Part shown: positions 12,876-42,390 of the stretch, one piece after another
Layout of the letters: every line of letters begins with the position of its first letter
How positions within the stretch are numbered: the stretch's first letter is position 1
Assembly (NCBI GenBank): GCA_041393395.1
Contig: JAWKKG010000003.1
Location: forward strand, 891,126-955,125
Source: a bacterium
Lineage (GTDB): Bacteria; ARS69
Length of the DNA stretch: 64,000 bases
Direction of reading: 5' to 3'
The notes under the pieces: model-generated
The model's database searches: none
The model's input: only the letters and a program-made list of their open reading frames with translations
What the model was told of the DNA's origin: nothing
Position numbers and translations under genes: made by a program

Positions 12876-12996
12876 CGTTTGATCCGGTCCGGGTTCTTCC
12901 TCGCATCGGCAACGTTGGCTGCGCGCTGAAGGCCGACTCGCGGAGCATGAATCCGGTATGATGGGAGAGTCCGGTGCCCCCGAGGAACCCGCCCGC

Positions 12997-17070: not shown

Positions 17071-17192
17071 GTGGAAGCTCTTGGTCTGGACCCGGGGGAC
17101 CGGGCCGCCCGCGGAAGGGCGGCCCCCCCGAGTCACTCTCCTGACCGTCGGCTCCGACCCGAGAGGACGAATCGCGGCCGGGGAGATCGAGC

Positions 17193-17654
17193 CTAGATCA
17201 CGCGGCCGAGGATCGCATCCAGGACGTCGTTCACGGCGGAGATCGGCGCCGCCACCCGGACGACCTCGTCCGGCGAGTCGACGTAGATGTGGATCGTGCC
17301 CTTCTTCATCTCGACCTGCACGATCTCCTCGTTCGTGCGGATGTCCACGAGCATGCCGTCGCGAACCTTGCCGAGCTCGCGCAGCGAGGCGCGCGCGATC
17401 TCGATGCCCTGGCGGGCGTCGTCGTCCAGCTCGCAGCGGATGTCGTCCACGATGACGGACGGAGCCAGTCGGATCGCGACGGGAACCAGCATCGCGGGGA
17501 TCGTCACGCCGACCTCGCCGCCTTCCTTCTCGATCACGCGGCACTCGATCGCGCCGGGAGTCCAGCTGTCCGCCGCGATCAGCACGAACGGCAGCACGAG
17601 CAGGACCGGAATCGCGAACAGCAGTGCGAACAGGGTGCGGTCACTGCGTTTCAT
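17193..17654 (-). CDS. membrane-anchored hypothetical protein (paralogous module with the next gene)
   Basis: GAGGAGGAA RBS and an N-terminal TM anchor. Shares an 'xHVxV..D.V.V..P....L' module with 17675-18220. Confidence 0.7.
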   Translation of the reverse strand: MKRSDRTLFALLFAIPVLLVLPFVLIAADSWTPGAIECRVIEKEGGEVGVTIPAMLVPVAIRLAPSVIVDDIRCELDDDARQGIEIARASLRELGKVRDGMLVDIRTNEEIVQVEMKKGTIHIYVDSPDEVVRVAAPISAVNDVLDAILGRVI

Positions 17655-18547: not shown

Positions 18548-19732
18548 ATGATCGACCTGCGCCGATCGCGCGGGGCCGGCGAGTGCCACCGTTTGGTGGA
18601 GGACCTCGACGGGCTCCGGCCGTCACTCGACGCCATCCTGGCGCGCGTGAACCAGTTGCTGCAGACCCCGCTGTCCGGGGACAGCCGCCAGCACGCGGAT
18701 TCGATCGCGCGCGACGCCCGGTCCCTGCTCGCCCGGGTGGGGAGCATCCGCGACGTGGCGGAGCTCACCGAGGGACACCTCGGGATCCGGGAGATCGAGT
18801 TCTCGCCCGCGGTCGCACTGCGGGCGGAGATCGACCGCCTGGCCCCGCTCGCGGAGGGCGAAGGGCTCGACCTCTCGCTTCGTCTGGAGACGGACCTTCC
18901 GGCGCGCGTGGTGGGCGACCCGAGTCGCATCCGCCAGGCGCTCGAGGAACTCGTCCGCTTCGCGGTGGATCACACCCCGCGCGGGAGCGTCGAGGTTCGC
19001 GCCGGGTGGGCCGAGGAAGACGTCCTGCGGATCACGGTGGAGGACACCGGGGTCGGGACCCGTTCCGAGCATCTCGAGCGCGTGCTCGCGGGCGAGCCGT
19101 CGAGCCACGGTCTGGCGTTCGCGCGCGAGCTCGTGGAGCTCATGGGCGGCACGCTCGTGGGACGCAGCCGGCTCGGGCTCGGTTCGCGCTTCGACCTGGA
19201 GCTGCCGCTCGAACGAGCGGCCCAATCCGTGCCGCTCGTGCACGGGCGACTCGCGGGGTCACGGATCCTGTTCCTCGGCGAGGAGGATCCGGAGCTCGAG
19301 GAACGTCTCGAGTCGCTCGGCGCGCGCACGATGTACTGCGGATCGTCCACGCAGGCGCTGCGTCGACTGCGCGAGACGGCCGAGGCGGGCGAGCCGTTCG
19401 ATCTTCTCGTCGCGAATCCGCCGTTCTCGGGTCCGGACGCCCTCACGTTCGGCTCGCTCGTGCAGGGCGACACGCGACTGCGCTCCACGGAGCTCGTCCT
19501 CGTCGCGCCGGCCGGTCAGCCGGGGGACGCGGCGCGTCTGGAGGCGGTGGGCTGGCGCGGCTACTTCACGCGACCTTCCACGCCGGAGTTCCTCACGCTC
19601 GCGCTCGCCACCGTGCTCGGCACGGCCCGCAACTTCGGTCCGCGCTTCGTGACCCGGCATCTCCTCGCGGAGTGCGAGGTCATCGCGGAGGACGAGGTCG
19701 CGGCGCGGACGAATCGATCGCGCTTCGAATGA
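18548..19732 (+). CDS. sensor-less histidine-kinase-like protein with a degenerate receiver domain
   Basis: GGGAGGA RBS. DHp-like helices and HATPase G1 EDTGVG are present. The N-box Asn positions read ELVRFAV. In the REC-like C-terminus the phospho-Asp position reads LLVANPP. Confidence 0.65.
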   Translation: MIDLRRSRGAGECHRLVEDLDGLRPSLDAILARVNQLLQTPLSGDSRQHADSIARDARSLLARVGSIRDVAELTEGHLGIREIEFSPAVALRAEIDRLAPLAEGEGLDLSLRLETDLPARVVGDPSRIRQALEELVRFAVDHTPRGSVEVRAGWAEEDVLRITVEDTGVGTRSEHLERVLAGEPSSHGLAFARELVELMGGTLVGRSRLGLGSRFDLELPLERAAQSVPLVHGRLAGSRILFLGEEDPELEERLESLGARTMYCGSSTQALRRLRETAEAGEPFDLLVANPPFSGPDALTFGSLVQGDTRLRSTELVLVAPAGQPGDAARLEAVGWRGYFTRPSTPEFLTLALATVLGTARNFGPRFVTRHLLAECEVIAEDEVAARTNRSRFE

Positions 19733-20417
19733 CCTCGAACGCGAGCGCGGAGAGCTGATCCGGCGTGCGCCCGTCGACCTCGATGGGGTCGTGCAGGCGC
19801 ACGCGCACGACACCCGGACGCAGCCGGAACCCGCTCACCTGCTGGAACTCGAACGCCCCCGTCATCGAGACGGGGATGATCGCCGCCCCCCAGCGCGTCG
19901 CCAGGCGGAACACCCCGGAGCGGAACAGGCTCAATGAGCCGTCTCGCGTGCGGGTCCCCTCCGGAAAGATGACGAGGCTGTAGCCGCGGTCGAGACGATC
20001 GCGTGCCTCCCGGTCCAGCCGTACCAGCCCCTCGCGGGATGGCCGATCCGGCACCGGCACGTTGCCGAACGCACGCATCAACCAGCCGTACACGGGCACG
20101 TCGAAGTGTGACTCGAGCTCGAGGCCACGTGCTCGCTGCCCGAGCGACGCGTAGACGACGAACGGATCGAACACGTTCACGTGGTTCGACAGGAACAGGT
20201 ACTTCGCCCCGGCGTCGATTCTCGGCGAGCGCTCCACCTCCAGCCGCATCCCGGCGAGTCGCACGACGTTCCGGGAGTACAGGCGAAGCAGCGGCTCGAT
20301 GCGTCGCGGGCCGAGCAGCGGCCGCAGAGCGACGAGAAGCAACGTGGCCGGAATGAAGTGCGCGAAGCTGATCGCCCACCGGAACGCGGAGCGCACGTCT
20401 GCGCCGAGGTCGCTCAC
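19680..20417 (-). CDS. plsC: 1-acyl-sn-glycerol-3-phosphate acyltransferase family (PlsC/AGPAT)
   Basis: NHVNVFD (HX4D) and FPEGTRTRDG blocks. GTG start forms a GTGA overlap with the upstream stop (20414-20417). Confidence 0.85.
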   Translation of the reverse strand: MSDLGADVRSAFRWAISFAHFIPATLLLVALRPLLGPRRIEPLLRLYSRNVVRLAGMRLEVERSPRIDAGAKYLFLSNHVNVFDPFVVYASLGQRARGLELESHFDVPVYGWLMRAFGNVPVPDRPSREGLVRLDREARDRLDRGYSLVIFPEGTRTRDGSLSLFRSGVFRLATRWGAAIIPVSMTGAFEFQQVSGFRLRPGVVRVRLHDPIEVDGRTPDQLSALAFEVIRSAIDSSAPRPRPPR

Positions 20418-22213
20418 GCCAGCGGCCGCATTCGATCGGGAGACGACCGCTCCCGCAGGTGCTCCGCCAGCACGCCGCGCTTCACCTTCATCGAGGCCGT
20501 GCGCGGGAACTCCTCGCTCCAGAACAGCACCGCACTCGCCCGCTGGTGCTCGGGGAGTCGCCGGTTGCGGGTTTCGATCTCCGCGAACAGCTCGTCCTCC
20601 GAGGGGCGTTCGGGATCGGGCCGCGCCACGAGCACGAGTCGCTCGTCGCGGGCCGTGCCCGGCCAGAGCCAGTGAGCCGCGAACAGGCACAGATCCGGCG
20701 CGAGCCCCGCGAAGGCGATCTCCACGTCCTCGGGGTACACGTTCTTGCCGCCTTCGGTCACGATCATGTTCTTGCGACGCCCCACGAGCTGGAGCGCGCC
20801 TCCCGCGGTGAGGCGGCCGAGGTCGCCGGTGCACAGCCAGCCCTCCGCGAACGTCTCCGCCGTGAGTTCGGGATCGTCGAGGTAGCCGCGCATGATCATC
20901 GGACTGCGAACGCGAACCTCGCCGATGCCGTCCGGGCCGGGGTCGGCGATCGTGAGCTCGATGCCGGGGAGCGGAGTGCCGACCGTCTCCGGTTGCGGGG
21001 GATCGAGACGATCGAGCGTGATCGCGGTGCCCGCCTCCGTGAGGCCGTAGCCGTTCGCCACGGGGATGCCGAGCCGGTGGAAGAAACGCAACGTCTCCGG
21101 CGCGGAGTATGCGCCGCCCACGAACAGTGCCTCGAGCCGGCCGCCGAACGCGTCGTGCACGGGGCGCAGCAGGCGACGTGCGATCGCGGGGCGCGGCCTG
21201 CCGCCCGACAGCGCGACGTTCAGGCGCACGAGTCCCTCGAACACCGCGCGCCGGAGCGGCGGCAGCTCGTCGAAACGGCGGCGAAGTCCCGTCTCCAGGT
21301 TCTTGAGCACCAGGGGGACGAGCGCCATGTGCGTGATGCGGTAGCGCGGGAACGCGTCGCGCACGAACTCCGGACGCAGCGTGCGCAGGTGCACCACCGT
21401 CGCGCCGCGGAAGTACGGGCCCAGGAACCCGACCATGAAGTCGATCGCGTGGTTCGTGGGGAGGATCGAGAGGTACCGCGTGCCGGGGCCGAGCGGGTGC
21501 AGCTGCGCGAGCGCGTCGAACTGGGCGAGGTAGTTGCCGTGCGTGAGCTGGCAGCCCTTGGGGCGACCGCCCGTGCCCGAGGAGTACACCAGGCAGGCGA
21601 CGTCTTCCGGCGCGCGCTCCACCGTCGGGGGGACGCTGATGGGGGCGGGCTCTTCGGGCACGGCGCCGGCATCACGAGTCGGGTCGGACGGAGCGCCGGC
21701 GCCCGTGGTCTCATCGAACGGCGTCGCGCGCGCGGTCGCCGGCCGGGCGATCTCCTGGCCCGGGGGCACGTCGGTCGCCACGACGTCCGCGATCCCGAGC
21801 GACGCGAACTCCGCCACGCCTCCCTGCGCCCGCAGCAGATGCCACTCCGCGAACACGACCTTCGGCTTCGCGTGCGCGAGGAGCGCGACCTGCTCCCCGG
21901 CCGAGAGCTTGAAGTCCAGCGGCACGAGCACGCCGCCGCGCCGGAACACGGCCGCCGCGGCGACGTGCCAGCGCGCCTGGTTCGACATCACGATCGCGGC
22001 GCGATCTCCCGGCCCGAAGCCGCGCTCCGCGAGCCACGCCGCGAGCCCTCCGGAACGTGCCTCGAGATCCCGGTACGTCAGGCGACCGTTCTCGCGATCG
22101 CGGTCCGCCTCGATGTGCGCGAGCGCGTCGCCGTGGCGCGCGAACGCCCGCGTCAACGCCACGCCGAGACTCGTGGGGTTCCCGAGGTCGGACAGAGGGG
22201 AAGGAGTGGTCAA
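20414..22213 (-). CDS. AMP-dependent synthetase/ligase (long-chain acyl-CoA/acyl-AMP ligase)
   Basis: AMP-binding core LVYSSGTGGRPKG, GYGLTE, TGDLG...GRRKNMIV. TTG start overlaps the ACP stop (TTGA). Confidence 0.85.
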   Translation of the reverse strand: MTTPSPLSDLGNPTSLGVALTRAFARHGDALAHIEADRDRENGRLTYRDLEARSGGLAAWLAERGFGPGDRAAIVMSNQARWHVAAAAVFRRGGVLVPLDFKLSAGEQVALLAHAKPKVVFAEWHLLRAQGGVAEFASLGIADVVATDVPPGQEIARPATARATPFDETTGAGAPSDPTRDAGAVPEEPAPISVPPTVERAPEDVACLVYSSGTGGRPKGCQLTHGNYLAQFDALAQLHPLGPGTRYLSILPTNHAIDFMVGFLGPYFRGATVVHLRTLRPEFVRDAFPRYRITHMALVPLVLKNLETGLRRRFDELPPLRRAVFEGLVRLNVALSGGRPRPAIARRLLRPVHDAFGGRLEALFVGGAYSAPETLRFFHRLGIPVANGYGLTEAGTAITLDRLDPPQPETVGTPLPGIELTIADPGPDGIGEVRVRSPMIMRGYLDDPELTAETFAEGWLCTGDLGRLTAGGALQLVGRRKNMIVTEGGKNVYPEDVEIAFAGLAPDLCLFAAHWLWPGTARDERLVLVARPDPERPSEDELFAEIETRNRRLPEHQRASAVLFWSEEFPRTASMKVKRGVLAEHLRERSSPDRMRPLA

Positions 22214-22452
22214 CGTCGCGCGTGGATCCGCTCGGAGAGCGTGCGGAAATCGGTGACGCCCTGCATCTCCCAGTCCGGCAGCTCCACGCCGAAGTGACCC
22301 TCCAGGCGCGAGAGCAGTTCCAGCGCCTTGAGGCTGTCGATGCGAAGCTTCGCGAAGAAGTCGTCGTCCGGCGCGAGCGTGTCGCGCGAGACGTCGAAGT
22401 GGCGGGCGGCGAGATCCAGGATCTCCTCCAGTGTCTCGTTCGGCGTGCTCAT
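22210..22452 (-). CDS. acyl carrier protein
   Basis: 80 aa with the phosphopantetheine-site context FFAKLRIDSLKALELL. Confidence 0.85.
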   Translation of the reverse strand: MSTPNETLEEILDLAARHFDVSRDTLAPDDDFFAKLRIDSLKALELLSRLEGHFGVELPDWEMQGVTDFRTLSERIHARR

Positions 22453-22460
22453 CTCGGACC

Positions 22461-23279
22461 TCACGGAAGGTAGGGAAGCGGATCCGCGCTGTTCACGAAC
22501 CGGCGGAGGCCTTCCTCCACCGCGGGGCGGGCGAGCAGCTCGCAGAAGACGTCGATCTCCTCGGCGAGCCGTTCGTACGGGACGGGCTTCGCGAATCGCT
22601 TCGCGGCCGTCGCGGTGCCGGCGTCGAACTTCGTGGTCTGCGCCGCGGTCGCGAGGGCGGCCGGCAGCGCCTGGCCCTCTCCCACGAGCTGACTCACGAG
22701 GCCGACCTCGTGCGCGCGCTTCGCGTTCAGGCTGCGGCCCGTGAGCAGCAGGTCGCGGACGACCGCGTTGCCCACGTCGCGTTCGAGGCGCGGGATGCCG
22801 CCGAAGCCGGGAATCAGGCCCAGCCGCAGCTCGGGGAAGCAGAACCGCGCGAGCTTGTCGGCCACGAGTACATCGCAGGCCAGCGCGAGCTCGAAGCCGC
22901 CGCCGAATACCATGCCGTGGAGCGCCGCGATCGTGGTGAGGGAGGAGTCGTCGAGGCGGTTCAGCACCGCGTGGATGCGCTCCAGGAACTCGCGCACGCC
23001 GGCGACGCGCTCGCTTGCGGGAAGGGCCTCCGCGCGTCGCCACAGCTCGCGCAGGTCCGCGCCCGCGCAGAATCCCGCCGGCAACGACGAGTACAGGACC
23101 AGCGCCCGCGCCCGCTCCTCCAGTGCCGGCAGCGCGCCGGCGAGGCGCTCGAGATCGTCGAGCATCTCGCTGCCGATCTCGTTCGCGGGCGCGCGATGCA
23201 GCTCCACCCGCACGACGTGACCCTCGACGGACCAGGAAAGCGTGTCTCCGCGGTACTCGAGCACGTCGCCTCCCGTCAC
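22461..23279 (-). CDS. enoyl-CoA hydratase/isomerase (crotonase) family protein
   Basis: Oxyanion-hole region GFCAGADLRE and downstream ALHGMVFGGGFELALACD. GTGA overlap with the upstream stop. Confidence 0.85.
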   Translation of the reverse strand: MTGGDVLEYRGDTLSWSVEGHVVRVELHRAPANEIGSEMLDDLERLAGALPALEERARALVLYSSLPAGFCAGADLRELWRRAEALPASERVAGVREFLERIHAVLNRLDDSSLTTIAALHGMVFGGGFELALACDVLVADKLARFCFPELRLGLIPGFGGIPRLERDVGNAVVRDLLLTGRSLNAKRAHEVGLVSQLVGEGQALPAALATAAQTTKFDAGTATAAKRFAKPVPYERLAEEIDVFCELLARPAVEEGLRRFVNSADPLPYLP

Positions 23280-24919
23280 GCCGACACGGCGGACTGCGCG
23301 TACAGCGCGTCGATCGAGTCACGGAACCGCTCGGCGATCGCGGCGCGCCGGAGCTTTCCGTTCGCGGTGAGGAGCCCATCCTCGGCTGTGAACGGTGTCT
23401 CGATCACGAGTGATCCGCGCACGCGCCGGTAGTGGGGGAGATCGACGTTGATCTCCTCGAGCGCGCGTTCCACTTCTTCCGGCCTTACGGACCCCGTGAC
23501 CAGGACCGCGAGCCACGGTTTCGCATCGCCGATCACCACCACCTGCTGGGCCGACGGCAGCCGCGCCGCGATCGCTTCCTCGAGCGGCTCGGGCGCGACG
23601 TTGTGGCCGGACGTCGGCACGATCAGGTTCTTGATGCGTCCGATCACGCGCCAGTTGCCGTCGGCATCCACCTCGCCCTGATCGCCCGTGCGGAACCAGC
23701 CGTCCGTGAACGACGCGGACGTCGCGTCCGGGCGGTTCCAGTAGCCGCCGAACACGTTCGGGCCGCGCGCGAGGATCTCGTCGTGCTCGCCCAGCCGCAT
23801 CTCCACGCCTTCCACCGCGCGGCCCACGCGGCCCGGCACCACGCGGTCCGGCTCGTCCATCGTGAGGATCGCGGTGGTCTCCGTGAGGCCGTAGACCTGG
23901 AGCACGGGGATGCCGATCAGGTCGAAGAATCCCTGCGTTTCGCTCGTCAACGGCGCGGAGCCGCAGATCAGCGCGCGGAGTCGCGGCCCGAGGCGACGTC
24001 GCACCGTGGGGAACAGCACGGCGCGTGCCGTGCCGCGCGCCACGAAGTCGCGCCGGCGCGGGGATTCTCCGCGCATCTCGGCCTGCTGCGCGCGCTCGGC
24101 GGCGCGGAACAGCGCGCGCGTCGGCGGGCGGCGCGCGAGTGCGCGCGTGATGCCCTCGCGCATCCGCTCCAGCAGCACCGGCACGTTCTGGAAGTAATGC
24201 GGCTTCGCGAGCGCGAGATCCTCCACGATCGAGGACAGATCCGTGTTCAGCGTGAGGATGCTCCGCCGGCCGAGCGACGCGAGCAGCAGGATCCACGATC
24301 CCGCGAAGCAGAAGGGCAGGTAGTGGAACACGCGATCCGGACCCGGCTCGCGGCCCATCAGTCCATCGAGGCGCCGGTTCGTTCGCTCGAGCATGAAGTC
24401 CAGGTTCGCGCCGGTCAGCACCACGCCCTTCGGCTCGCCCGACGTGCCGGACGTGTACAGGATCGCCACCGGCGACTCGACGTCGCGCTCGGGCGGCGCG
24501 TCTCCGCGATCCTCCGCCTGATCGAGCGCAGCGAGCTCGTGGATCGGAACGTCGACTCCCGCTTGCCGCAGCGCCGCGGCCTGCTCGGCCGACTCCACCA
24601 GCACCAGCGTCGGGGTGGCGTCGCGCAGCAGCGCCGCCATCTCCGCCGGCTGGCTGCGCGCGTACAGCGGCACCACGATCGCCCCGTGCGCGATGATCGC
24701 GAGATCGGCGGCGACCCAGCTCGCGGAGTTCGTGCCGAGCAGCGCCACGCGGTCGCCGCGGCGCACACCGGCGTCGCTCAGGAACGCACGCGCGCGTCGG
24801 ATCCGCTCCGCGAGCCACGAGCCGGGGAACGCGAGAAGCTGTCCGCCTCGCGCCTCCTGCACGAACGGGTGATCGGGGTGGCGATCGAGCTCCCCGAGGA
24901 TCCGCTCGAGGTGCTTCAC
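23276..24919 (-). CDS. long-chain acyl-CoA synthetase (AMP-binding)
   Basis: ILYTSGTSGEPKG, VYGLTET, TGDQGEVD...GRIKNLIV. GTG at 24919 overlaps the upstream stop (GTGA). Confidence 0.85.
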   Translation of the reverse strand: MKHLERILGELDRHPDHPFVQEARGGQLLAFPGSWLAERIRRARAFLSDAGVRRGDRVALLGTNSASWVAADLAIIAHGAIVVPLYARSQPAEMAALLRDATPTLVLVESAEQAAALRQAGVDVPIHELAALDQAEDRGDAPPERDVESPVAILYTSGTSGEPKGVVLTGANLDFMLERTNRRLDGLMGREPGPDRVFHYLPFCFAGSWILLLASLGRRSILTLNTDLSSIVEDLALAKPHYFQNVPVLLERMREGITRALARRPPTRALFRAAERAQQAEMRGESPRRRDFVARGTARAVLFPTVRRRLGPRLRALICGSAPLTSETQGFFDLIGIPVLQVYGLTETTAILTMDEPDRVVPGRVGRAVEGVEMRLGEHDEILARGPNVFGGYWNRPDATSASFTDGWFRTGDQGEVDADGNWRVIGRIKNLIVPTSGHNVAPEPLEEAIAARLPSAQQVVVIGDAKPWLAVLVTGSVRPEEVERALEEINVDLPHYRRVRGSLVIETPFTAEDGLLTANGKLRRAAIAERFRDSIDALYAQSAVSA

Positions 24920-26358
24920 GCGGGAACTCCCGATCGATGAGGCGTGCCCAGTACGGGGGCGTCCGTCGCCCAGCGGGCGGCGAGCGCCTCGAGTCCGGGC
25001 GAGAGCGGCGGCAGGTACTCGCGCCAGGGGACGAGCCCTTCGCGGACGGGGAACTCCGCAAAGCGACGAGCGACTTCGGCCTCCAGGAACGCGCCCATGC
25101 GCGCCATCCGCACGAGGTTGTCCGCGACCGTGCGCCCGAGATCGTCGCGCATCGACTCCGCCTCGTCGTCCAGCCGATGCAGGATGCCGAGCAGTCGCTC
25201 CTCGAGCGCGGGGTCGTCCACCGTGAGCAGCAGATGCTCGTGGCCGCGCTCGTGCATCAGGTTGCGGATGCGCTCGTCCATCGTGATGCCGGCGGACGGC
25301 ACGAGCGCCGGCATGCTCGTGACGATCGCGTGGAAGCGCGACGACACGAGCCGGTCGCAGCGCCGGAGGATCGACACGAGCGTGTGCATGTCGTGCTCGC
25401 CGGAGGCGAAAACCGGCGCTCCGTCGAGCCGGGCCGCGACGCGCTCGCACGCGTCCTGGTCCAGCGCTTCCATCGCCACGAGCACGGGAAACACTTGCCG
25501 CTCGCGCCGGTACGCGGTCACGGCGTTCGCGATCGAGGACAGGTAGCGGTCGTACGCCGCGTCGACGTCGGCGCCTGCGCGGTGGAAGTAGATCGAGCGG
25601 TAGTGGCTCTCCCGGTACGCGCCGAACAGTCGCGCCGCGCCCTTGAGGATCGACGGTCGCACGGGCCACCAGAACGGATTGATCGGACACAGCCCGAGGA
25701 TCGGGGTCGAGCCGTCCCAGCCGGCCGCGCGCAGCAGCGTGTCCGCCCGCTCGGCGCCCCGCGGCTCGAACGTCCACGCGGTGTCGGTGCCGGGCTCGAC
25801 CGGAACTCCGAGCGCGCGCAGGCGGGTCTCCGACTCGCGGTTGCGCGTGATCACGAGCGACGAGCCGCAATGCCGGCGCACGAGCCGTTCGAGGCCCGGG
25901 TGCATGTCGCCGGCCTCGGCGCCGTAGCCGATGGAGATCCCGTTCCGCGCCGAGGCGACCCCGAGCGCGCCGACCATCATCGTGGTCAACGCATCCGCGA
26001 AGCGGCTCTTGAACATGGAGCCCTCGGCCGCGATCACTCCGTGGTGACGCGGCACCTCGCGTGCGAGGAACGGCGGGAACACGTCGGGCAGTTTCACCTG
26101 CCGCGACCGACCGAAGTAGCCCTCGGTGAGCCGGAAGTCCTGGGTGAGCACCGAGATGCGCACGCGGTCCGGACCGAGGACGTGCTCGATCTGCCGTACC
26201 ATCTCCTCGACACGAACGTCGGAGCCGGTGTTGCGCGCGCCGTTGTAGCCCGCGATCAGCAGGTCGAGCGGCTGGCCGGGGCGCCACGGGCGGGCGGGGC
26301 CGCGCTTGGCGCCCTCGATCACGGCGCCGGTCCAGCGACGCAGCAGCACGTCACTCAT
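24916..26358 (-). CDS. polysaccharide pyruvyl transferase family protein
   Basis: N-terminal LLIAGYNGARNTGSDVRVE and C-terminal LVSSRFHAIVTSM resemble the CsaB/WcaK-type PS_pyruv_trans fold. ATG at 26358 overlaps the upstream gene by 8 nt. Confidence 0.65.
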   Translation of the reverse strand: MSDVLLRRWTGAVIEGAKRGPARPWRPGQPLDLLIAGYNGARNTGSDVRVEEMVRQIEHVLGPDRVRISVLTQDFRLTEGYFGRSRQVKLPDVFPPFLAREVPRHHGVIAAEGSMFKSRFADALTTMMVGALGVASARNGISIGYGAEAGDMHPGLERLVRRHCGSSLVITRNRESETRLRALGVPVEPGTDTAWTFEPRGAERADTLLRAAGWDGSTPILGLCPINPFWWPVRPSILKGAARLFGAYRESHYRSIYFHRAGADVDAAYDRYLSSIANAVTAYRRERQVFPVLVAMEALDQDACERVAARLDGAPVFASGEHDMHTLVSILRRCDRLVSSRFHAIVTSMPALVPSAGITMDERIRNLMHERGHEHLLLTVDDPALEERLLGILHRLDDEAESMRDDLGRTVADNLVRMARMGAFLEAEVARRFAEFPVREGLVPWREYLPPLSPGLEALAARWATDAPVLGTPHRSGVPA

Positions 26359-27580
26359 GGGCGGCCCTCGAGCGGGAATGGGAGCCGTTCGAGCCGTTCG
26401 TCGTCTTCGCGGCGGCCGCGACGTCTTCGAGCGTGGCCGGACGCGACGGCGCCGGCGGCCGGTCCGCGCCCTCCGGCCACTCGCGGTGCGGGTAGCGGAA
26501 GTCCTGGCGACGCGACCAGTCCAGCAGCGGTGCCGCGTACTTCGGGAACGACGCGGGCGCGCGGCCGAGCTCGGTGACCACGCGGGAGGAATCGAACACC
26601 GTATCGTACGTGAGATACGGGAAGAAGACGTCGAGGAGCCGCGCGCCGAGTCGCACCGGCTTGGGACCGAACCGCCCGAGGGCGGAGGCCGCGAACCGGA
26701 ACGGCCCTTCGAGCCCGGGCACGTAGGCCGGGCGGCCCGTGCCGAGGGACTCGGACAGCGTGTCCGTGATCGCGCGGTACGTCGGCGCCTCGCGGCCGGC
26801 CGAGAGATGGTACACGCGATGATCCGTCCGCTCGCGCAGGTGCAACGTGACGATCGCATCGGCCACCCAGTTCGCGGGCACGATGTCGATCCGATCGAGC
26901 GGACGGAGCGGCAGCACGGGCAGCGACGCGAGGAACGAGAACGCCCGCACCATGTCGAACTGCGTCGTCTCCGCGAAGCGGCTGTCGCCCATCACGATGG
27001 ACGGCCGGAACACGAGGCGGGAGACGTCGGGCAGCAGCTCGCCCACCAGGTGCTCCGCGAATTTCTTCGTGCGGCCGTAGGCGTCGTAGTCGCGACGTTG
27101 CCAGTCGACGGCGGAGTCCTCGTCCACGACCTCGTGCGATCGCTCGCCCGCCACCGACACCGTCGACACGTGGCTGAACCGACGCAGGCCGCGCTCGTCC
27201 TGGATCTCGCGCGCGAGCTTCGCGAGCGCGAGCGTGCCCCGGATGTTGACGTTGAGGCATGCACGCTCGGACCGCCGGTTCAGCGAGGCGGCGCAGTGCA
27301 GAATCGCGTCGGTGGTGCGCGCGAGGCGGAGACGATCGTCGGGCGAGAGGCCGAAGTCCGGTTCCGTGAGGTCGCCCGCGAACACCTCGACCCGCAACCG
27401 GAGGTGCTCGAAGAAGTCCTCGGGCGACAGGTGGAGTTGCCAGGCGCGCCACAGACGTCGCTCCGCCTCCGCCCGGTCGCGCGCGCGCACGAGCACCGCC
27501 ACGGGCTCGCCCTCGCGCAGCAAGCCGGCCGCGAGGTACGAACCCAGGTATCCGGTGGAGCCGGTGAGCAGCGTGGCCAT
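26351..27580 (-). CDS. SDR-type thioester/acyl reductase (NAD_binding_4-like)
   Basis: MATLLTGSTGYLGSYL Rossmann motif and YGRTKKFAEHL (YxxxK). TGATG junction with the upstream gene at 27580. Confidence 0.8.
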   Translation of the reverse strand: MATLLTGSTGYLGSYLAAGLLREGEPVAVLVRARDRAEAERRLWRAWQLHLSPEDFFEHLRLRVEVFAGDLTEPDFGLSPDDRLRLARTTDAILHCAASLNRRSERACLNVNIRGTLALAKLAREIQDERGLRRFSHVSTVSVAGERSHEVVDEDSAVDWQRRDYDAYGRTKKFAEHLVGELLPDVSRLVFRPSIVMGDSRFAETTQFDMVRAFSFLASLPVLPLRPLDRIDIVPANWVADAIVTLHLRERTDHRVYHLSAGREAPTYRAITDTLSESLGTGRPAYVPGLEGPFRFAASALGRFGPKPVRLGARLLDVFFPYLTYDTVFDSSRVVTELGRAPASFPKYAAPLLDWSRRQDFRYPHREWPEGADRPPAPSRPATLEDVAAAAKTTNGSNGSHSRSRAAHE

Positions 27581-29508
27581 CAGGTCTTCACCCCGGCGGG
27601 CGTGGCGGGCTTCTCGCGGGACGTCTCGACCGGCTTCGGTCGTCCGGACCCGCGACGCTCGATCAGCGGATACGCCCACCGGCGGAGCGCCGGGATGTGG
27701 ACGTGGATCCAGTAGTCGTACCAGTCGATCGCCTCGGGATTCCAGGGGAACCGCGCCTGCTCCTCATCCGACAGCGCGTGGAACAGCGTGGCGACGTGAT
27801 CCGCCTCGAACACCGGCTCGTGGTCGAGGAGAAACGGCTCGTACAGCTCGATCAGCTCCGTGGCGCGACGCAGCCGCTTCTCCACGGACGCGAGCGGCGC
27901 GCGCCGGCCCGGCGTGACGGCGGCGATCGCGCGGTTCAGTCCGCGCACGATCGCGAGCTGGCGCGGCGCGGACAGGTTCTCGTAGCGGGCGCGTGACACG
28001 GGCGTGGCCTCGAGACGGCCGAGCACGCGCTCGCGCCACGTGCGTCCCTGGCGGTAGAACCGCCGGTGCGCGAGGGCGGTGAGCTCCACCGCGCGCTCCA
28101 GGTTCAGCGGGTTCGTGGCGGAGGTGGCGAGCTGCGTCACGAGCGGGGCGCGGCCCTCCAGCAGCGCGGCGGCCACGATCGTCATCCCGCGGCACAGCAG
28201 GTCCACCGGGATCACGTCGAGTCGCTTGCGCTCGTTCACCGGCAGCTGTCGGAACGCCGTGCCGAGCAGGTGGGCGAGCGGCGCCGACGTGTTGATCCCC
28301 TCGTTCCAGCCGGGGGAGGAGAATGCGGACGTCTCCACGATCGCCGGACGCGCGATCGCGAGCGGCACGTCGCCGCGGCGTTCGGCCACGAGCGTCTCGC
28401 CGAGCGACTTCGTGAACGTGTACACGTTCGGCCAGCCGAGCTCGCGGGCACGGTCGCGAGCGAGTCGCACGAGCTCGCGTCGCCGCGGGCCCTCCATCGA
28501 CTGCCGCGCGAGACGCTCGCGCTCGGCGGTGGCGTCGAGCGGCAGGCCGAACGGCGTGCGCGTGCCGTCGAGCGTTTCGGCCACGCGACCCTCGCGCGCG
28601 CCCGCGACGAAACACGTCGACACGTGGAGGAATGCCGCACCGGCCTCGCGCGCGAGTTCGAGCAGGCGGAGCGGTCCGTCGACGTTGACGGCCAGCGCGT
28701 CGCGCGGATCGGGATTGAACTCGGTGAGCCCCGCGCAGTTGATCACGAGATCCGTCGATTCCACGACGCGCCGCCGATCGTCGCCGGAGAGTCCGAGATC
28801 CGGTCGCGCGAGATCGCCGGCCACGGCGCGCACCGCGGCGCGAGCGTCGGCGGGGACCTCCGCGAACACCGGGCTCGCGATCATCTGCGCGAGGCGGGCC
28901 TCCGGGTCCTGTCCTCGGGCGCGGAGCATCAGCGTCACGCTCCCGAGCTCCGGGAGCTGGCTCAGGAGCTGGGCGAGCCAGACCTTGCCGATGAAGCCCG
29001 TGGCGCCGCTGATGAGGAGTCGCTGCCCGGCGAGTGCGTCCCGAACCGACCAGGGGGCCGGCAGGGCGCCGCTCAGGAAGACCGGAGCGGGGCGCGCGGC
29101 GTCGTCCAGTCGCACCAGGTGCAGGTCGGGGAGTACGCGGCCGGTGGCCTTGCCGTCGCGGATCTCCACGCGGCGGCACACGTACCGATCGATCGAGAGC
29201 CGCCGCGCCACGGCGCGGACGACCGGCTCGAAGGCGTCGCTCTCGAGCACCACGACGTGGCCGGCGCGGAGCGCCTCGCGCACCCGGGTCACGCCATCCG
29301 GATTGAGACAGAGGGTCTCGGCGATCGCCTCACCGCGCCAGCGCAGTCGATCCTCGCTCGTGCCCGCGAGGCGCCGCGGCACGTGGCGGCCGGGAGCGAG
29401 ATCGCCCGGATCGAGCAGCAGGTCCCGCTCGAGCGAGACGGGCTCGGTCCGGAAGACCCGGGCTGCCGGGTCCGGACGTTCGGGGAGTGTCACGGGATCA
29501 CCGGCCAC
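27580..29508 (-). CDS. fatty acyl-CoA/ACP reductase-like protein (NAD_binding_4 plus C-terminal domain) with a ~190-aa N-terminal extension
   Basis: LISGATGFIGKVWL and YTFTKSLGE (YxxxK). Preferred start is GTG at 29508 with a GAGGAA RBS. The ORF finder's TTG at 29631 lies in low-GC, non-coding-looking DNA. Confidence 0.75.
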   Translation of the reverse strand: MAGDPVTLPERPDPAARVFRTEPVSLERDLLLDPGDLAPGRHVPRRLAGTSEDRLRWRGEAIAETLCLNPDGVTRVREALRAGHVVVLESDAFEPVVRAVARRLSIDRYVCRRVEIRDGKATGRVLPDLHLVRLDDAARPAPVFLSGALPAPWSVRDALAGQRLLISGATGFIGKVWLAQLLSQLPELGSVTLMLRARGQDPEARLAQMIASPVFAEVPADARAAVRAVAGDLARPDLGLSGDDRRRVVESTDLVINCAGLTEFNPDPRDALAVNVDGPLRLLELAREAGAAFLHVSTCFVAGAREGRVAETLDGTRTPFGLPLDATAERERLARQSMEGPRRRELVRLARDRARELGWPNVYTFTKSLGETLVAERRGDVPLAIARPAIVETSAFSSPGWNEGINTSAPLAHLLGTAFRQLPVNERKRLDVIPVDLLCRGMTIVAAALLEGRAPLVTQLATSATNPLNLERAVELTALAHRRFYRQGRTWRERVLGRLEATPVSRARYENLSAPRQLAIVRGLNRAIAAVTPGRRAPLASVEKRLRRATELIELYEPFLLDHEPVFEADHVATLFHALSDEEQARFPWNPEAIDWYDYWIHVHIPALRRWAYPLIERRGSGRPKPVETSREKPATPAGVKT

Positions 29509-29676
29509 GTTTTCCTCACGGATCCCGGAACTCTCCGGCGATCTTGAAAAAAATACAAGGCACAAGGAGTCCGAGCGTGCCGCGCCCGGGGCGGGAGTTT
29601 CGCCCGGATCCTCGAACTTGTTTGAATTCAATGTCTTGTGCGTGCCCGGGGCCCGATGGAGTCTGCGCAGATGGAA

Positions 29677-29702: not shown

Positions 29703-29802
29703 TTCAATCCTTTCCCGGGATGTGACCCTCGGGTACCCGAGCCCGAGACTCGCGGAAGGAAGGAAATGGACCCCCGGGCTTGCTCGGGGGTCCTTCCTTT
29801 TG
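29703..29802 (+). ncRNA. candidate sigma-54-dependent small RNA (about 100 nt)
   Basis: Bounded by the -12 element (predicted start ~29703) and the strong hairpin plus T-run at 29761-29802. Contains no credible ORF apart from a possible 21-codon one. Confidence 0.3.
29761..29802. terminator. bidirectional intrinsic terminator
   Basis: AGGAA-at-GGACCCCCGG-cttg-CTCGGGGGTCC-TTCCT, then TTTTG on the plus strand. On the minus strand it sits 26 nt after the sigma-54 activator stop. Confidence 0.6.
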
Positions 29803-29827: not shown

Positions 29828-31228
29828 CTAGCGCGCGCTCGGTTCGGGCGCCGAGTCCACCGCGGCATCGCGGGCCGCGCCGTGCTCGTCCTGCTCGTAT
29901 TCCTTGAGCCGATTGTAGAGCGTCTTGAGGCTGACGCCCAGGGTCGCGGCCGCCTCTCGCTTGTTTCCGCCCAGCTGCTCGAGCGTCGCGAGAATGAGCG
30001 CCTTCTCCGCCGTGGCGATCGACGTTCCGACCTCCACCGTGACCCGATGGCCGCTCTGCGTCGCGCGGGGACGGCGCGTGCCGAGCGGGACCGCGTCGGC
30101 GCCGATGATCTCGCCGCCCATGATCCAGGCCCGCTCCACCACGTTCTTCAGCTCGCGGACGTTGCCGGGCCAGTCGTGCTGGGAAAGCCGCGCGAGCGCC
30201 TCGTCCGAGAAGCGCTTCGGCTCGGGCTTGCCCTGATTCAGCGAGTCGAGGAACGCGTGCGCGAGCAGCCCGACGTCGTCGTCGCGATCGCGCAGCGGCG
30301 GCAGTTCCACGGGGAACACGTTCAGCCGGTACAGGAGATCCTCGCGCAGCTTTCCGTCGGAGACGGCCTGCTCCGGATCGCGGTTCGTGGCGGAGATCAG
30401 TCGCACGTCGACCTTCTTGGCCACACCGCCGCCGATGCGCGTGACCTCGCCCGTCTCCAGGATCCGAAGCAGCTTCACCTGCAGCTCGGTCGGCATCTCG
30501 GTGATCTCGTCGAGGAACAGCGTGCCGCCGTCCGCGCGCTCGAAGATTCCGGTGCGGCGTTCCTGCGCGCCCGTGAAGCTGCCCTTCTCGTGTCCGAAGA
30601 ACTCGGACTCGATGAGCGAGGGCGCGATCGCGCCGCAGTTCACCGCGAGGAACGGCTTCTTCGCGCGCCGGCTCAGCTCGTGCAGCGTATGGGCCGCGAC
30701 TTCCTTGCCGGTGCCGGTCTCGCCCGTGATGAGCACGGTGGTGTCCGTGGGCGCGACGCGTTCGATGCGGTCGTACACGCCCTGCATCGCGGGCGAGCCG
30801 CCGATGATGCGGCCGAAGCGGCCGAGCCGGCGCAGCTCGCCGCGCAGCGTGTCGATCTCGCGGCGCAGGTCCGCGTTGCGCTCCACGTGACCGAGGATCT
30901 TCCGCAACCGATCGAGGTCCACGGGCTTCGTGAGGTAATCCACCGCGCCGCCGCGCATCGCGTCCACGGCGGAGCGGATCGAGCCCTGCCCGGTCATGAA
31001 CACGACTTCCGTGTCCGGGAGGTTCGTCAGGTCCTCGAGCAGATCGAGGCCCGTTCCGTCCGGCAGGTAGAGATCGAGCAGCACGACGTCGGGGTTCGAG
31101 CGATCGAGCTGGGAGCGGGCGGCTTCGAGCGAGTCGGCGGTGCTGACCTCGAAACCCTCGCGCTCGACCCAGCGGGCGAGCGAGCGGAGTCCGCCCGGGT
31201 CGTCGTCGATGAGAAGGGCGCTCGGCAT
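29828..31228 (-). CDS. sigma-54-dependent response regulator (NtrC family)
   Basis: REC domain (LLIDDDP, VLLDLYLPDG). AAA+ domain with GETGTGKE and a GSFTGA loop. C-terminal Fis-type HTH AAATLGVSLKTLYNRLKE. Confidence 0.93.
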   Translation of the reverse strand: MPSALLIDDDPGGLRSLARWVEREGFEVSTADSLEAARSQLDRSNPDVVLLDLYLPDGTGLDLLEDLTNLPDTEVVFMTGQGSIRSAVDAMRGGAVDYLTKPVDLDRLRKILGHVERNADLRREIDTLRGELRRLGRFGRIIGGSPAMQGVYDRIERVAPTDTTVLITGETGTGKEVAAHTLHELSRRAKKPFLAVNCGAIAPSLIESEFFGHEKGSFTGAQERRTGIFERADGGTLFLDEITEMPTELQVKLLRILETGEVTRIGGGVAKKVDVRLISATNRDPEQAVSDGKLREDLLYRLNVFPVELPPLRDRDDDVGLLAHAFLDSLNQGKPEPKRFSDEALARLSQHDWPGNVRELKNVVERAWIMGGEIIGADAVPLGTRRPRATQSGHRVTVEVGTSIATAEKALILATLEQLGGNKREAAATLGVSLKTLYNRLKEYEQDEHGAARDAAVDSAPEPSAR

Positions 31229-31235
31229 GGGCGTT

Positions 31236-31973: not shown

Positions 31974-32263
31974 GGCAGTCTCCTCCAGGGGGCAGGTGCG
32001 ACGCGGATTCTAGCAGGCGCCGCCGGTGGGCGGGGACGTTCCCCCGGATTCGCCCGCCGGATTTTGTAGAAATTTCCATCGCGCTGAAAAAACGGCGCCG
32101 ACGTTCCCCGCGCCGGACAACCCGCGGATCTCTCCGAGAATTGCTGATTGTGAAGATTCGATGTGAATTCTGGCCCCTCGGGGTCGCGAGGAGCGGGGTC
32201 CTCCGAAAGCCGGTCCCCCGGGTCCGGTTTGGTCTCCGTCTTGCAGAAAGAACGTTCTGCGCG

Positions 32264-32279
32264 TGGCACCCCGCGCGCT
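32264..32279 (+). promoter_or_regulatory. sigma-54 (-24/-12) promoter match upstream of the small membrane protein gene
   Basis: TGGCACcccgcgcGCt: perfect TGGCAC (32264-32269) and GC at 32277-78 with consensus spacing. Lies 22 nt before the ATG at 32301, with AGGAGGG between. Confidence 0.45.
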
Positions 32280-32300
32280 TAACCACCAGGAGGGTGATCC

Positions 32301-32591: not shown

Positions 32592-32684
32592 CTTTCGGCC
32601 GGCCAGTTTCGTCCGGCTTCGCCCGGGAGCTTCGACCAGGCCGCTTGGGCCGGGCCGCTTCGTTCGGCATCGGGCCACCCCGGA

Positions 32685-42389: not shown

Positions 42390-42390
42390 G

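Follow-up and report, generated by a model that had tools for sequence, protein, structure and literature searches.

What do eight closely packed genes for acyl-lipid enzymes make, and why does a gene of the polysaccharide pyruvyl transferase family lie among them? A first-pass annotation of a 64,000-nucleotide stretch of DNA (hereafter the window), which is from a Gemmatimonadota-like genome, drew attention to these genes and read them as a split version of the ElbD-type module for ether or fatty-alcohol lipids, leaving three elements unexplained: the pyruvyl-transferase-family gene, the crotonase and an N-terminal extension of about 190 residues on the fatty acyl-CoA reductase (FAR). We find that the observation itself is correct in its genes, motifs and junctions, whereas its interpretation is supported only in part. 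The genes form an operon that most likely builds an unusual fatty-alcohol-derived, probably ether-linked, membrane lipid, and one of its best-conserved products is an enzyme that has not been linked to lipid synthesis. We found no paper describing this operon.

The eight genes form a single tightly packed operon

All eight open reading frames are present on the minus strand between positions 19680 and 29631, and third-position GC supports their frames. In the order of transcription, and with two further features, they are:

29768-29793, minus strand: GC-rich hairpin between the upstream sigma-54 activator gene and g1, the likely upstream boundary of the operon
27580-29631, minus strand: g1, HAD-like domain fused to an alcohol-forming-type FAR (683 aa; start codon uncertain)
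29107-29385, minus strand: degenerate HAD-IB-like domain within g1 (residues ~83-175)
26351-27580, minus strand: g2, stand-alone thioester-reductase-type NAD(P)H reductase (409 aa)
24916-26358, minus strand: g3, PS_pyruv_trans-family enzyme with a predicted GT-B fold (480 aa)
23276-24919, minus strand: g4, acyl-CoA synthetase (ACS; 547 aa), an accessory gene
22461-23279, minus strand: g5, crotonase-fold enoyl-thioester hydratase (272 aa)
22210-22452, minus strand: g6, acyl carrier protein (ACP; 80 aa)
20414-22213, minus strand: g7, adenylate-forming ligase next to the ACP (599 aa)
19680-20417, minus strand: g8, PlsC/AGPAT-family acyltransferase (245 aa)

Six of the junctions are start/stop overlaps, exactly as first described: TGATG at 27580, 8 nt at 26351-26358, GTGA at 24916-19 and at 23276-79, TTGA at 22210-13 and GTGA at 20414-17; g5 and g6 are separated by a gap of 8 nt. 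A scan for terminator-like structures found the hairpin upstream of g1, with a stem of 9-11 pairs, and no promoter-like site was found between it and g1. The start of g1 (TTG at 29631) is uncertain, because the first ~45 residues are not conserved. No AGPS-like flavoenzyme and no ketosynthase, as the first-pass annotation had stated, and no kinase or head-group gene, were found among the window ORFs scanned.

Domain assignments

Searches against Pfam and NCBIfam models and against sequences of solved structures assigned each protein to a family. g1 matches NAD_binding_4 (171 bits), Sterile (35.6) and, in its N-terminal extension, part of HAD (35.9), and its residues 196-653 match a fatty acyl-CoA reductase, PDB 7EOZ, at E = 4e-36. 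g2 matches NAD_binding_4 (153 bits) and scores 122 bits with TIGR01746, below the cut-off of that model; its best PDB relatives are MxaA (4U7W), the M. tuberculosis NRP R domain (4DQV) and CAR R domains. Placement of the two reductases in unrelated families such as the sugar epimerases had been named beforehand as an outcome that would count against a lipid role; both belong instead to the FAR/thioester-reductase family. g4 matches AMP-binding (196 bits) and AMP-binding_C_3, its best NCBIfam model being FadD11-like but well below the cut-off, whereas g7 matches AMP-binding (245 bits). g5 matches ECH_1 (131 bits) and its best PDB relatives are methylglutaconyl-CoA hydratase and 3-hydroxybutyryl-CoA dehydratase. 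g6 matches PP-binding (44 bits), and g8 matches Acyltransferase (72 bits) as well as the acyltransferase part of the acyl-[ACP]--phospholipid O-acyltransferase model PRK08633.

The expected motifs are seen in the translations: GATGFIGK and YTFTK in g1, GSTGYLGS and YGRTK in g2, SGTSGEPKG in g4, SGTGGRPKG in g7, IDSL, with the DSL serine, in g6, and NHVNVFD (HX4D) and FPEGTR in g8. The crotonase keeps both of its catalytic glutamates, within GGGFELALACD and FPELRLG.

The N-terminal extension of g1 is a degenerate HAD-IB-like domain. The Pfam match covers only profile positions 57-152 of 189, TIGR01490 scores 32 bits, and the catalytic DxD is lacking: where motif I (DxDGT) is expected, orthologues read R-V-E-G-S/T and the window reads N-V-A-G-D. 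In Myxococcota the domain is a separate gene of 219-222 aa. Its role remains unexplained, although, lacking the catalytic aspartates, it is probably structural or regulatory.

g3 passes the threshold of PF04230 only weakly (33.4 bits; cut-off 25.3) and scores 57.8 bits with the CsaB equivalog model, far below the cut-off of 213. It has no detectable sequence match to any solved structure, and an AF2 model (pLDDT 83) matches generic GT-B folds rather than a solved pyruvyl transferase.

The gene order is conserved across phyla

To test whether the gene set co-occurs in other genomes, we examined 80 loci that carry an orthologue of g3. All eight genes are colinear in 80 of 80, wherever the contig is long enough to show them, an arrangement far beyond chance. 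These loci are mostly from Acidobacteriota, with Gemmatimonadota, Verrucomicrobiota, Planctomycetota and Myxococcota, and the marker gene is encoded in at least 581 species genomes; the gene order is kept in hundreds of soil bacterial species. An orthologue of g1 is present in 63 of 63 loci with room for it. Across loci, g3, g5 and g6 are the best conserved, g3 with 57-66% identity across phyla and g5 and g6 each with a median identity of 63%; the median for g2 is 56%. g3 and its relatives form a distinct, very conserved subfamily, with 302 representatives at E <= 1e-30. Thus, the pyruvyl-transferase-family gene is not the embedded oddity that it was first taken for. Moreover, in other lineages it is fused to the FAR (protein P0271) or to the ACS (protein P0161).

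Some versions of the cluster depart from this set. g4 is absent from some Myxococcota and Bdellovibrionota versions (absent in loci L090 and L085, present in L092), and g7 is present in nearly every version seen, but not in locus L086. The Myxococcales version lacks g4 and keeps FAR, thioester reductase, g3, crotonase, ACP, ligase, kinase and acyltransferase, along with a stand-alone HAD-like gene; its single ligase is the orthologue of g7 (48% identity to g7 against 31% to g4). In L086 the g3-ACS fusion sits beside a CAR-like A-R enzyme. Frequent accessory genes encode a YegS/DAG-type lipid kinase, which sits inside the operon in 37 loci, and a CDP-alcohol phosphatidyltransferase; both point to a glycerolipid or phospholipid product. 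In the Gemmatimonadota-type loci the operon follows a conserved block of sensor kinase and sigma-54 activator genes. No acyl-CoA dehydrogenase, wax synthase or glycosyltransferase was found in any version.

A possible route to an alkylglycerol lipid

What our analysis shows is a widespread, strictly colinear and previously uncharacterised lipid-biosynthesis operon of the order HAD-like/FAR, thioester reductase, PS_pyruv_trans-family enzyme, (ACS), crotonase, ACP, adenylating ligase, (lipid kinase) and PlsC acyltransferase; the catalytic steps, the product and the role of each protein are inferred from sequence alone, in the absence of biochemical data for any member of the operon. We put the probability that this is a conserved fatty-alcohol-derived lipid operon at about 0.85, but that of the specific route proposed below at only about 0.3. 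In this view, g4 would activate a fatty acid to acyl-CoA and g1 would reduce it to a fatty alcohol. g3 would use phosphoenolpyruvate (PEP), as all characterised members of its family do, and would transfer the enolpyruvyl unit to the alcohol, forming an ether bond and giving 2-alkoxyacrylate. The new carboxylate would then be adenylated and loaded onto the ACP (g7/g6), or made into a CoA ester by g4; the crotonase would hydrate the alpha,beta-unsaturated thioester, as crotonases hydrate methacrylyl-CoA, to a 2-O-alkylglyceroyl thioester; g2, a carrier-protein-type reductase, would release it as an alkylglycerol; and g8 would acylate a free hydroxyl. In genomes that carry them, the YegS-type lipid kinase and the CDP-alcohol phosphatidyltransferase would convert this unphosphorylated backbone into a phospholipid.

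The colinearity, the domain assignments and the two natural fusions are in line with this route, although gene fusions do not prove consecutive steps. The CAR-like enzyme of L086 needs no separate ACS to reduce a fatty acid, which suggests that the fused ACS acts on the product of g3, and the Myxococcales version, apart from its HAD-like gene, holds exactly the minimal set that the route needs. As no version has an acyl-CoA dehydrogenase to make a 2-enoyl substrate for the crotonase, the double bond has to come from elsewhere, and we infer that an enolpyruvyl group could supply it. g2 resembles carrier-protein thioester reductases that reduce to alcohols, such as MxaA, and a lipid kinase within the operon fits a backbone that is made unphosphorylated. 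sn-2 alkyl ethers exist in bacteria, in the anammox ladderane lipids (PMC2911534). However, characterised pyruvyl transferases make cyclic ketals on sugar diols and none is known to make enol ethers on fatty alcohols; the match of g3 to its family is weak; and the route predicts a 2-O-alkyl ether, whereas the ether lipids described for myxobacteria (PMC9131029) are 1-O-alkyl, as are those known from Acidobacteria. In addition, the sequences do not allow the two ligases to be assigned to substrates, the HAD-like domain is left unexplained, and the window itself has no kinase or head-group gene.

Alternative readings

An ElbD-type, AGPS-independent pathway to 1-O-alkyl ether lipids is nearly as possible, if also tentative. 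Here, g7 would load a fatty acid on the ACP, g2 and/or g1 would reduce it to aldehyde or alcohol, the ether would form at sn-1 of a glycerol phosphate-derived backbone by chemistry still unknown, as it is for Myxococcus ElbD, and g8 would acylate sn-2, with accessory or unknown roles for g3 and g5. The domain inventory is that of elbA-E (HAD-IB, FAR, ACS, ACP, AT and NAD-type reductases; PMC9131029), orthologous clusters occur in Myxococcota with a separate HAD gene, like elbB, and the elb cluster has been reported in subdivision-4 Acidobacteria (PMC13159169), while Blastocatellia loci carry the present operon. As orthologues of g3 can lack any recorded Pfam hit, ElbC, described as being of unknown function, could be one, which is no more than a lead. 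However, this reading leaves three strictly conserved genes (g3, g5 and one of the two reductases) without a role, explains neither the FAR-g3 and g3-ACS fusions nor the lipid kinase in the operon, and the ElbD architecture (Re-A-ACP-AT in one protein) is not found here.

The remaining readings appear unlikely. A diol-based or ketal lipid, in which the crotonase makes 3-hydroxyacyl-CoA, the FAR reduces it to a long-chain 1,3-diol, g3 closes a cyclic pyruvate ketal on the diol, chemically like the 4,6-pyruvylation of a hexose, and the ketal carboxylate is activated by g7 on the ACP and then reduced by g2 or transferred by g8, would use the ketal-forming chemistry of the PS_pyruv_trans family and the catalytic glutamates of g5, and would suit both fusions equally well; yet it needs an acyl-CoA dehydrogenase or a supply of 2-enoyl-CoA, neither of which is encoded in any version, it accounts less naturally for the lipid kinase and the CDP-alcohol transferase, and we know of no lipid of this kind. 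The operon could also serve ordinary acyl-lipid remodelling or storage, making fatty alcohols or wax-type lipids and recycling acyl chains in the manner of Aas, with g3 pyruvylating a polar head group or an unrelated glycan. FAR enzymes make wax-ester precursors in many bacteria, and g6, g7 and g8 resemble a split Aas, but the absence of a wax synthase and of a glycosyltransferase from every version speaks against it, and the conservation and fusions of g3 argue against an unrelated glycan role. Lastly, the product could be a small diffusible metabolite, for example a reduced, hydroxylated fatty acid derivative used as a signal: the set of ligase, carrier protein and reductase is what genome-mining tools call NRPS-like, elb-like clusters are classed that way (PMC9426513), and the block of sensor kinase and sigma-54 activator genes precedes the operon in the Gemmatimonadota-type loci. 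Against this stand the very wide distribution and high sequence conservation of the operon, and its PlsC, lipid kinase and CDP-alcohol phosphatidyltransferase genes, which point to a membrane phospholipid.

Comparison with known systems

The elbA-E ether lipid operon of Myxococcus xanthus (MIBiG BGC0000871; ElbD = FAR-ACS-ACP-AGPAT) has the same set of domain families: a HAD-IB-type protein, a FAR-type reductase, an adenylating ligase, an ACP, a PlsC-type acyltransferase and additional NAD(P)-dependent reductases of the extended SDR type, and neither operon has an AGPS. This parallel is one of domain inventory, not of demonstrated orthology to the Elb proteins. In the present operon every domain is a separate protein, except that HAD is fused to FAR; the ACP gene precedes the ligase gene; and a crotonase and a PS_pyruv_trans-family enzyme are always present, usually with a second ligase. 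With the eukaryotic (peroxisomal) pathway (FAR1, GNPAT, AGPS, acyl/alkyl-DHAP reductase and AGPAT) it shares a FAR with a Sterile C-terminal domain, which would supply a fatty alcohol, a PlsC-superfamily acyltransferase and an NAD(P)H reductase. It has no AGPS flavoenzyme and there is no evidence for a DHAP-based backbone, while carrier-protein chemistry, a crotonase and a PEP-type transferase have no counterpart in that pathway.

Like the polysaccharide pyruvyl transferases (PF04230: CsaB, WcaK, Pvg1p), g3 has a two-domain fold, predicted to be of the GT-B type, an Arg-x-His motif (SSRFHA) and an N-terminal G-Y-N-G-x-R-N-T-G-S-D motif, which resemble motifs of the family; however, it sits in a lipid operon with no glycosyltransferase or sugar gene. 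Precedents for the proposed chemistry, by analogy only since g3 has no sequence relationship to MurA, are the MurA/MurB pair (an enolpyruvyl ether formed from PEP on an alcohol, then a lactyl ether) and the hydration of methacrylyl-CoA, an alpha-substituted acrylyl thioester, by crotonase. Finally, g6, g7 and g8, although separate proteins with a dedicated ACP, reproduce the ligase, carrier and PlsC logic of the Aas acyl-ACP synthetase/acyltransferase, and g2 is closest to the carrier-protein thioester reductases, among the terminal reductases of the carboxylic acid reductase and MxaA type.

Organisation of the locus

The window has about 70% G+C, and eight ORFs, whose frames are supported by third-position GC, are found on the minus strand between 19680 and 29631. 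Pfam searches confirm every family that the first-pass annotation had named, and the assignments are as follows:

27580-29631 (-), g1: NAD_binding_4, Sterile and a partial HAD match
26351-27580 (-), g2: NAD_binding_4
24916-26358 (-), g3: PS_pyruv_trans
23276-24919 (-), g4: AMP-binding plus AMP-binding_C_3
22461-23279 (-), g5: ECH_1
22210-22452 (-), g6: PP-binding
20414-22213 (-), g7: AMP-binding
19680-20417 (-), g8: Acyltransferase

Six of the junctions are start/stop overlaps, exactly as that annotation had described, and g5 and g6 are 8 nt apart; the sequence motifs it had listed for the reductases, the ligases, the ACP and the acyltransferase are also all present. No AGPS-like gene and no ketosynthase was found in the window ORFs that we scanned. 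The observation of a compact eight-gene cluster is thus confirmed, and the finding is real, non-random and widely conserved.

A block of signalling genes sits directly upstream of the operon (29828-36221, minus strand) and consists of a GAF-HisKA-HATPase-receiver hybrid kinase (32685-36221), a small HATPase protein (31236-31973) and an NtrC-type sigma-54 activator (29828-31228). The same block precedes the operon in its nearest non-identical relative, locus L083 (359-6563), and it may regulate the operon. A strong hairpin at 29768-29793 separates these genes from g1. However, although a sigma-54 promoter was looked for upstream of g1, because of the neighbouring activator gene, no match better than chance was found on the correct strand; no sigma-70-like site was found either. 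Downstream lies a convergent HATPase-domain gene.

Other features were seen elsewhere in the window:

41166-42167 (-), 44320-46251 (-) and 49664-51814 (+): a non-homologous end-joining gene set, formed by an ATP-dependent DNA ligase, a Ku-domain protein, and a LigD with phosphoesterase, ligase and primase-polymerase domains
3402-5435 (-) and 35320-38568 (+): two large paralogous proteins with an Exo_endo_phos domain, the second also with a type I phosphodiesterase domain; a similar gene flanks the operon region in L083
57760-63036 (+) and 56027-57550 (+): a 1758-aa gingipain-like Peptidase_C25 protein with FG-GAP and CarboxypepD_reg domains and a C-terminal FlgD_ig domain, and the 507-aa protein before it, which has the same C-terminal domain; this may be a shared secretion or sorting tag
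12126-13580 (-) / 12883-14355 (+), and 14821-17070 (+) / 15505-17544 (-): long overlapping ORFs on opposite strands, both with high third-position GC in the first pair, for which gene calls are ambiguous; the Pfam hits are a receiver domain (12126-13580, -), a cytochrome c554-like domain (12883-14355, +) and a pyridine nucleotide-disulphide oxidoreductase (14821-17070, +), with none for 15505-17544 (-)
42000-46000: a drop in G+C to 0.65-0.68, against about 0.70-0.72 elsewhere, in a stretch that holds a right-handed beta-helix protein (42301-43680, +) and the Ku gene

No tRNA or Rfam RNA was found anywhere in the window.

Conservation of the operon

To examine conservation, g3 was used as the marker gene. 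More than 6,900 clusters (at 90% identity) match g3, and the best 120 are 60-76% identical to it over nearly the full length. A scan of one genome per GTDB species found at least 581 species with a relative. On g3, the window is 98% identical to a Gemmatimonadetes MAG (locus L001); the other top loci are mostly from Acidobacteriota (Terriglobia/'Acidiferrales', Blastocatellia), but Gemmatimonadota, Verrucomicrobiia, Planctomycetaceae and a few others also appear. A tblastn search with all eight proteins showed the same order and strand in 80 of 80 loci, wherever the contig is long enough. Per gene, the counts were 63/63 for g1, 70/70 for g2, 74/74 for g4, 69/69 for g5, 60/62 for g6, 58/58 for g7 and 43/53 for g8. 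Start/stop overlaps recur in other genomes. The loci were chosen by similarity to g3, so that this analysis shows that g3 orthologues always sit in this operon; more distant g3-like proteins, scoring 230-330 bits, sit elsewhere. Median identities were 63% for g5 and g6, 60% for g3, 56% for g2, 52% for g7, 48% for g4, 46% for g8 and 41% for g1. Thus, g3, which the first-pass annotation had regarded as oddly embedded in a lipid operon, is among the best conserved of the genes.

The distant g3-like proteins in Massilia and Paraburkholderia, and one in a gene context that looks archaeal, lie in unrelated surroundings (a Rieske/VanA oxygenase with a TPP enzyme, or translation genes), and were rejected as members of this operon; they are paralogues. 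Those of the Burkholderiales (Massilia aurea, Paraburkholderia nemoris; loci L084, 10001-14595; L087, 4841-9383; L088, 6922-9404) are found next to a TPP-dependent enzyme and/or a Rieske/VanA oxygenase, with a DCC1-like and an AurF-like gene in Massilia, in what looks like a different, also uncharacterised pathway that uses the same enzyme family.

Accessory genes, variants and gene fusions

Clustering of the flanking ORFs, together with Pfam scans, revealed three recurrent additions: a YegS/DAGK_cat lipid kinase between g7 and g8, in 37 loci; a convergent CDP-alcohol phosphatidyltransferase after g8, in 25 loci; and a FabH-like ketosynthase III between g5 and g6, in 10 loci, mainly Blastocatellia (L038, 8936-9937, and nine others). 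The latter hints that a dedicated (possibly branched) acyl primer or chain is supplied there. The window and L083 lack these genes, and share the upstream regulator block instead.

In Myxococcota the operon exists in two forms. In a Myxococcales MAG (L090), the order is HAD (a separate gene, 219 aa), FAR, thioester reductase (TR), g3, crotonase (ECH), ACP, ligase, kinase and acyltransferase (AT), with no g4; the version in a Sandaracinaceae MAG (L092) is the same, but with g4. Orthology is clear, as the identities to the window proteins are 55% for the TR, 51-52% for g3, 54% for the ECH, 49% for the ACP, 37% for the FAR and 34% for the AT, whereas the ligase is 48% identical to g7 but only 31% to g4. 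Therefore, g4 is accessory, and a minimal myxobacterial version of the operon exists.

The g3 gene is central to the operon, and two natural fusions tie it to its neighbours. P0271, a 1014-aa protein from a Pseudobacteriovorax MAG, is a FAR (NAD_binding_4 plus Sterile) fused to g3, and its gene is followed by those for an ECH, an ACP and a ligase. P0161 (967 aa) is g3 fused to a g4-type ACS, followed by a g2-like reductase, an unknown 240-aa protein, an SDR and a CAR-like ligase-reductase.

Properties of the individual proteins

Residues 196-653 of g1 align end to end with a solved fatty acyl-CoA reductase (PDB 7EOZ; E = 4e-36) and have the NAD_binding_4 (171 bits) plus C-terminal Sterile (35.6 bits) architecture of alcohol-forming FARs; the GxxGxxG and YxxxK motifs are present, as GATGFIGK and YTFTK. 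The N-terminal extension of roughly 190 aa, left unexplained by the first-pass annotation, is an HAD-IB-like domain (PF12710; TIGR01490, 32 bits), but a degenerate one. The Pfam match covers only profile positions 57-152 of 189, or 29-153 in a longer acidobacterial orthologue. Where motif I (DxDGT) should be, acidobacterial orthologues read R-V-E-G-S, the stand-alone Myxococcota proteins read R-V-E-G-T/A, and the window reads N-V-A-G-D. An HAD phosphatase would have a DxDx(T/V) nucleophile in motif I together with acidic residues in motif IV; the domain does not fulfil this and is therefore unlikely to be one.

The g2 protein is closest to carrier-protein thioester reductases: MxaA, the M. tuberculosis NRP R domain and CAR. 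It exceeds the Pfam NAD_binding_4 threshold, its closest structures are terminal reductases, and it also matches Epimerase (PF01370, 57 bits), but it scores 122.3 bits with the thioester reductase model TIGR01746, below the cut-off of 213.35. A sugar-epimerase reading was rejected, since both reductases score highest as NAD_binding_4.

For g3, the assignment to PS_pyruv_trans (PF04230) rests on a Pfam score of 33.4 bits, against a cut-off of 25.3, over residues 139-359 (relatives score 47-59 bits), on the CsaB model TIGR03609, for which its score of 57.8 bits is well below the cut-off of 213.1 and does not support equivalence to that characterised pyruvyl transferase, and on invariant motifs such as RNTGSD, EGSMFKS and SSRFH, some of which resemble pyruvyl-transferase motifs. 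The AF2 model is confident (pLDDT 83, pTM 0.85), with a predicted GT-B fold. However, a sequence search against the PDB gave no hit at E <= 1, and Foldseek returned only generic matches, to UDP-GlcNAc 2-epimerases and GT-B glycosyltransferases, with TM 0.4-0.5, so that structure neither confirms nor refines the assignment. In a library clustered at 50% identity, the g3 subfamily has 302 representatives at E <= 1e-30. Some orthologues carry no recorded Pfam hit: that of L092 has none, yet is 52% identical to g3.

The crotonase g5 (ECH_1, 131 bits) is nearest to methylglutaconyl-CoA hydratase and 3-hydroxybutyryl-CoA dehydratase, and keeps both glutamate motifs, GGGFE and FPE, which are assigned as the catalytic pair by reference to rat ECH. 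The nearest solved relatives of g4 and g7 form nearly the same list, of feruloyl-, malonyl-, oxalyl- and fatty acyl-CoA ligases, and do not allow substrates to be assigned to the two ligases. Lastly, g8 (72 bits) matches AGPAT models and the acyltransferase part of acyl-[ACP]--phospholipid O-acyltransferase, and has the HX4D and (F)PEGTR blocks, as NHVNVFD and FPEGTR.

A possible route to an alkylglycerol lipid

What the analysis establishes is a conserved operon of lipid enzymes centred on a FAR, a second reductase, a PS_pyruv_trans-family enzyme, a hydratase, an ACP with its ligase and a PlsC-type acyltransferase, often extended by a lipid kinase and a head-group transferase; the route described next, including PEP-dependent pyruvyl transfer by g3 and the formation of an alkyl ether lipid, is inferred from sequence alone. 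In this view, the FAR would make a fatty alcohol, from acyl-CoA supplied by g4 where it is present, and g3 would use PEP, as its characterised relatives do, to form an enolpyruvyl ether. The new carboxylate would be loaded on the ACP by g7, or on CoA by g4; the crotonase would hydrate this alpha-substituted acrylyl thioester, for which methacrylyl-CoA hydration is the precedent; g2 would release an alkylglycerol, and g8 would acylate it. The kinase and the CDP-alcohol transferase would then turn the unphosphorylated product into a phospholipid. This route gives every conserved gene a role and needs no enzyme from outside the cluster.

The route is consistent with the FAR-g3 and g3-ACS fusions, with the presence in locus L086 of a CAR-like enzyme, which needs no ACS, alongside the g3-ACS fusion, with the carrier-protein reductase type of g2, and with a lipid kinase inside the operon. 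Moreover, no version contains an acyl-CoA dehydrogenase that could supply a 2-enoyl substrate for the crotonase. However, there is no biochemistry for any member, and known pyruvyl transferases make ketals on sugars. The route also predicts a 2-O-alkyl ether, whereas the ether lipids described for myxobacteria are 1-O-alkyl (PMC9131029). Those known from Acidobacteria are likewise 1-O-alkyl, although sn-2 alkyl ethers do occur in anammox ladderane lipids (PMC2911534). We put the probability of the general reading, a fatty-alcohol-derived lipid operon, at about 0.85, and that of the specific route at only about 0.3.

Among the alternatives, an ElbD-like sn-1 ether route of unknown chemistry is possible, and only slightly less likely than the tentative route above. 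A diol or ketal lipid, an ordinary remodelling or wax-type operon, and a diffusible metabolite all seem unlikely; a wax-ester reading in particular was rejected, since no wax synthase or glycosyltransferase gene is present. The interpretation in the first-pass annotation, of a split version of the ElbD logic, is partly supported.

A more far-reaching possibility, which we consider doubtful but which is not excluded, is that the operon encodes a previously unrecognised, oxygen-tolerant, AGPS- and PlsA/Ger-independent way of making glycerol ether lipids, in which the ether bond and the three-carbon backbone both come from phosphoenolpyruvate: a pyruvyl-transferase-family enzyme would make a fatty-alcohol enolpyruvyl ether, which would be thioesterified, hydrated by a crotonase and reduced to an alkylglycerol. 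If so, this would be a candidate for the missing aerobic ether-lipid route of Acidobacteria, which are sources of brGDGT-type lipids, and it might also explain the unknown chemistry of the myxobacterial elb pathway. How aerobic bacteria make alkyl ether lipids is unresolved, and Acidobacteria that make them are the exception to the Ger/PlsA rule (PMC13159169); their lipids underlie widely used brGDGT palaeoclimate proxies. The operon is very widespread in exactly those phyla, has a fixed gene order, and contains a strongly conserved enzyme of a family that is not known to have been linked to lipids, and it therefore gives concrete hypotheses for a new lipid pathway, testable enzyme by enzyme. 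Even if the ether hypothesis fails, the definition of the g3 subfamily, the recognition of the HAD-like domain as a degenerate one, unlikely to be a phosphatase, and the identification of the FAR-g3 and g3-ACS fusions stand.

Comparison with known ether-lipid systems

Literature searches for a pyruvyl transferase in ether-lipid or acidobacterial lipid clusters found nothing relevant, and we found no paper that mentions a gene of this family in such clusters; a search on elbC likewise gave nothing useful. Protein searches with the FAR-g3 fusion and with the Myxococcales HAD protein returned only MAG relatives, and no M. xanthus proteins. The elbA-E genes are described as coding for an NAD-epimerase-family protein, an HAD-like protein, a protein of unknown function, a FAR-ACS-ACP-AGPAT protein and a second NAD-epimerase-family protein, and the steps from fatty acid to alkyl ether through ElbD are unknown (PMC9131029; PMC13012113). 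Since g3 orthologues can lack a recorded Pfam hit, ElbC, the protein of unknown function, might be one, but this is a lead rather than a result. Clusters resembling elb, with neighbouring DAG kinase and CDP-alcohol transferase genes, have been reported in sponge-associated Acidobacteriota and Poribacteria, and the elb cluster itself in subdivision-4 Acidobacteria.

With regard to the AGPS-dependent ether lipid pathway, no FAD-dependent alkyl-DHAP synthase gene occurs in the operon, in the scanned window ORFs or in the related loci. The operon is closest in kind to the elb-like bacterial ether or fatty-alcohol lipid clusters, but we do not assign it to the elb family itself, as the fusion that defines ElbD is absent. 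The window's operon appears to share the elb inventory, although the HAD-IB-like domain of g1, which lacks the DxD motif, and the Epimerase match of g2 are only tentative counterparts of ElbB and of the NAD-dependent epimerase/dehydratase-family proteins ElbA and ElbE. It does not share the elb architecture: the four domain types of ElbD (reductase, adenylation, ACP and AGPAT) are present on four separate proteins (g1, g7, g6 and g8), the ACP gene lies upstream of the ligase gene, and a crotonase and the g3 enzyme are added.
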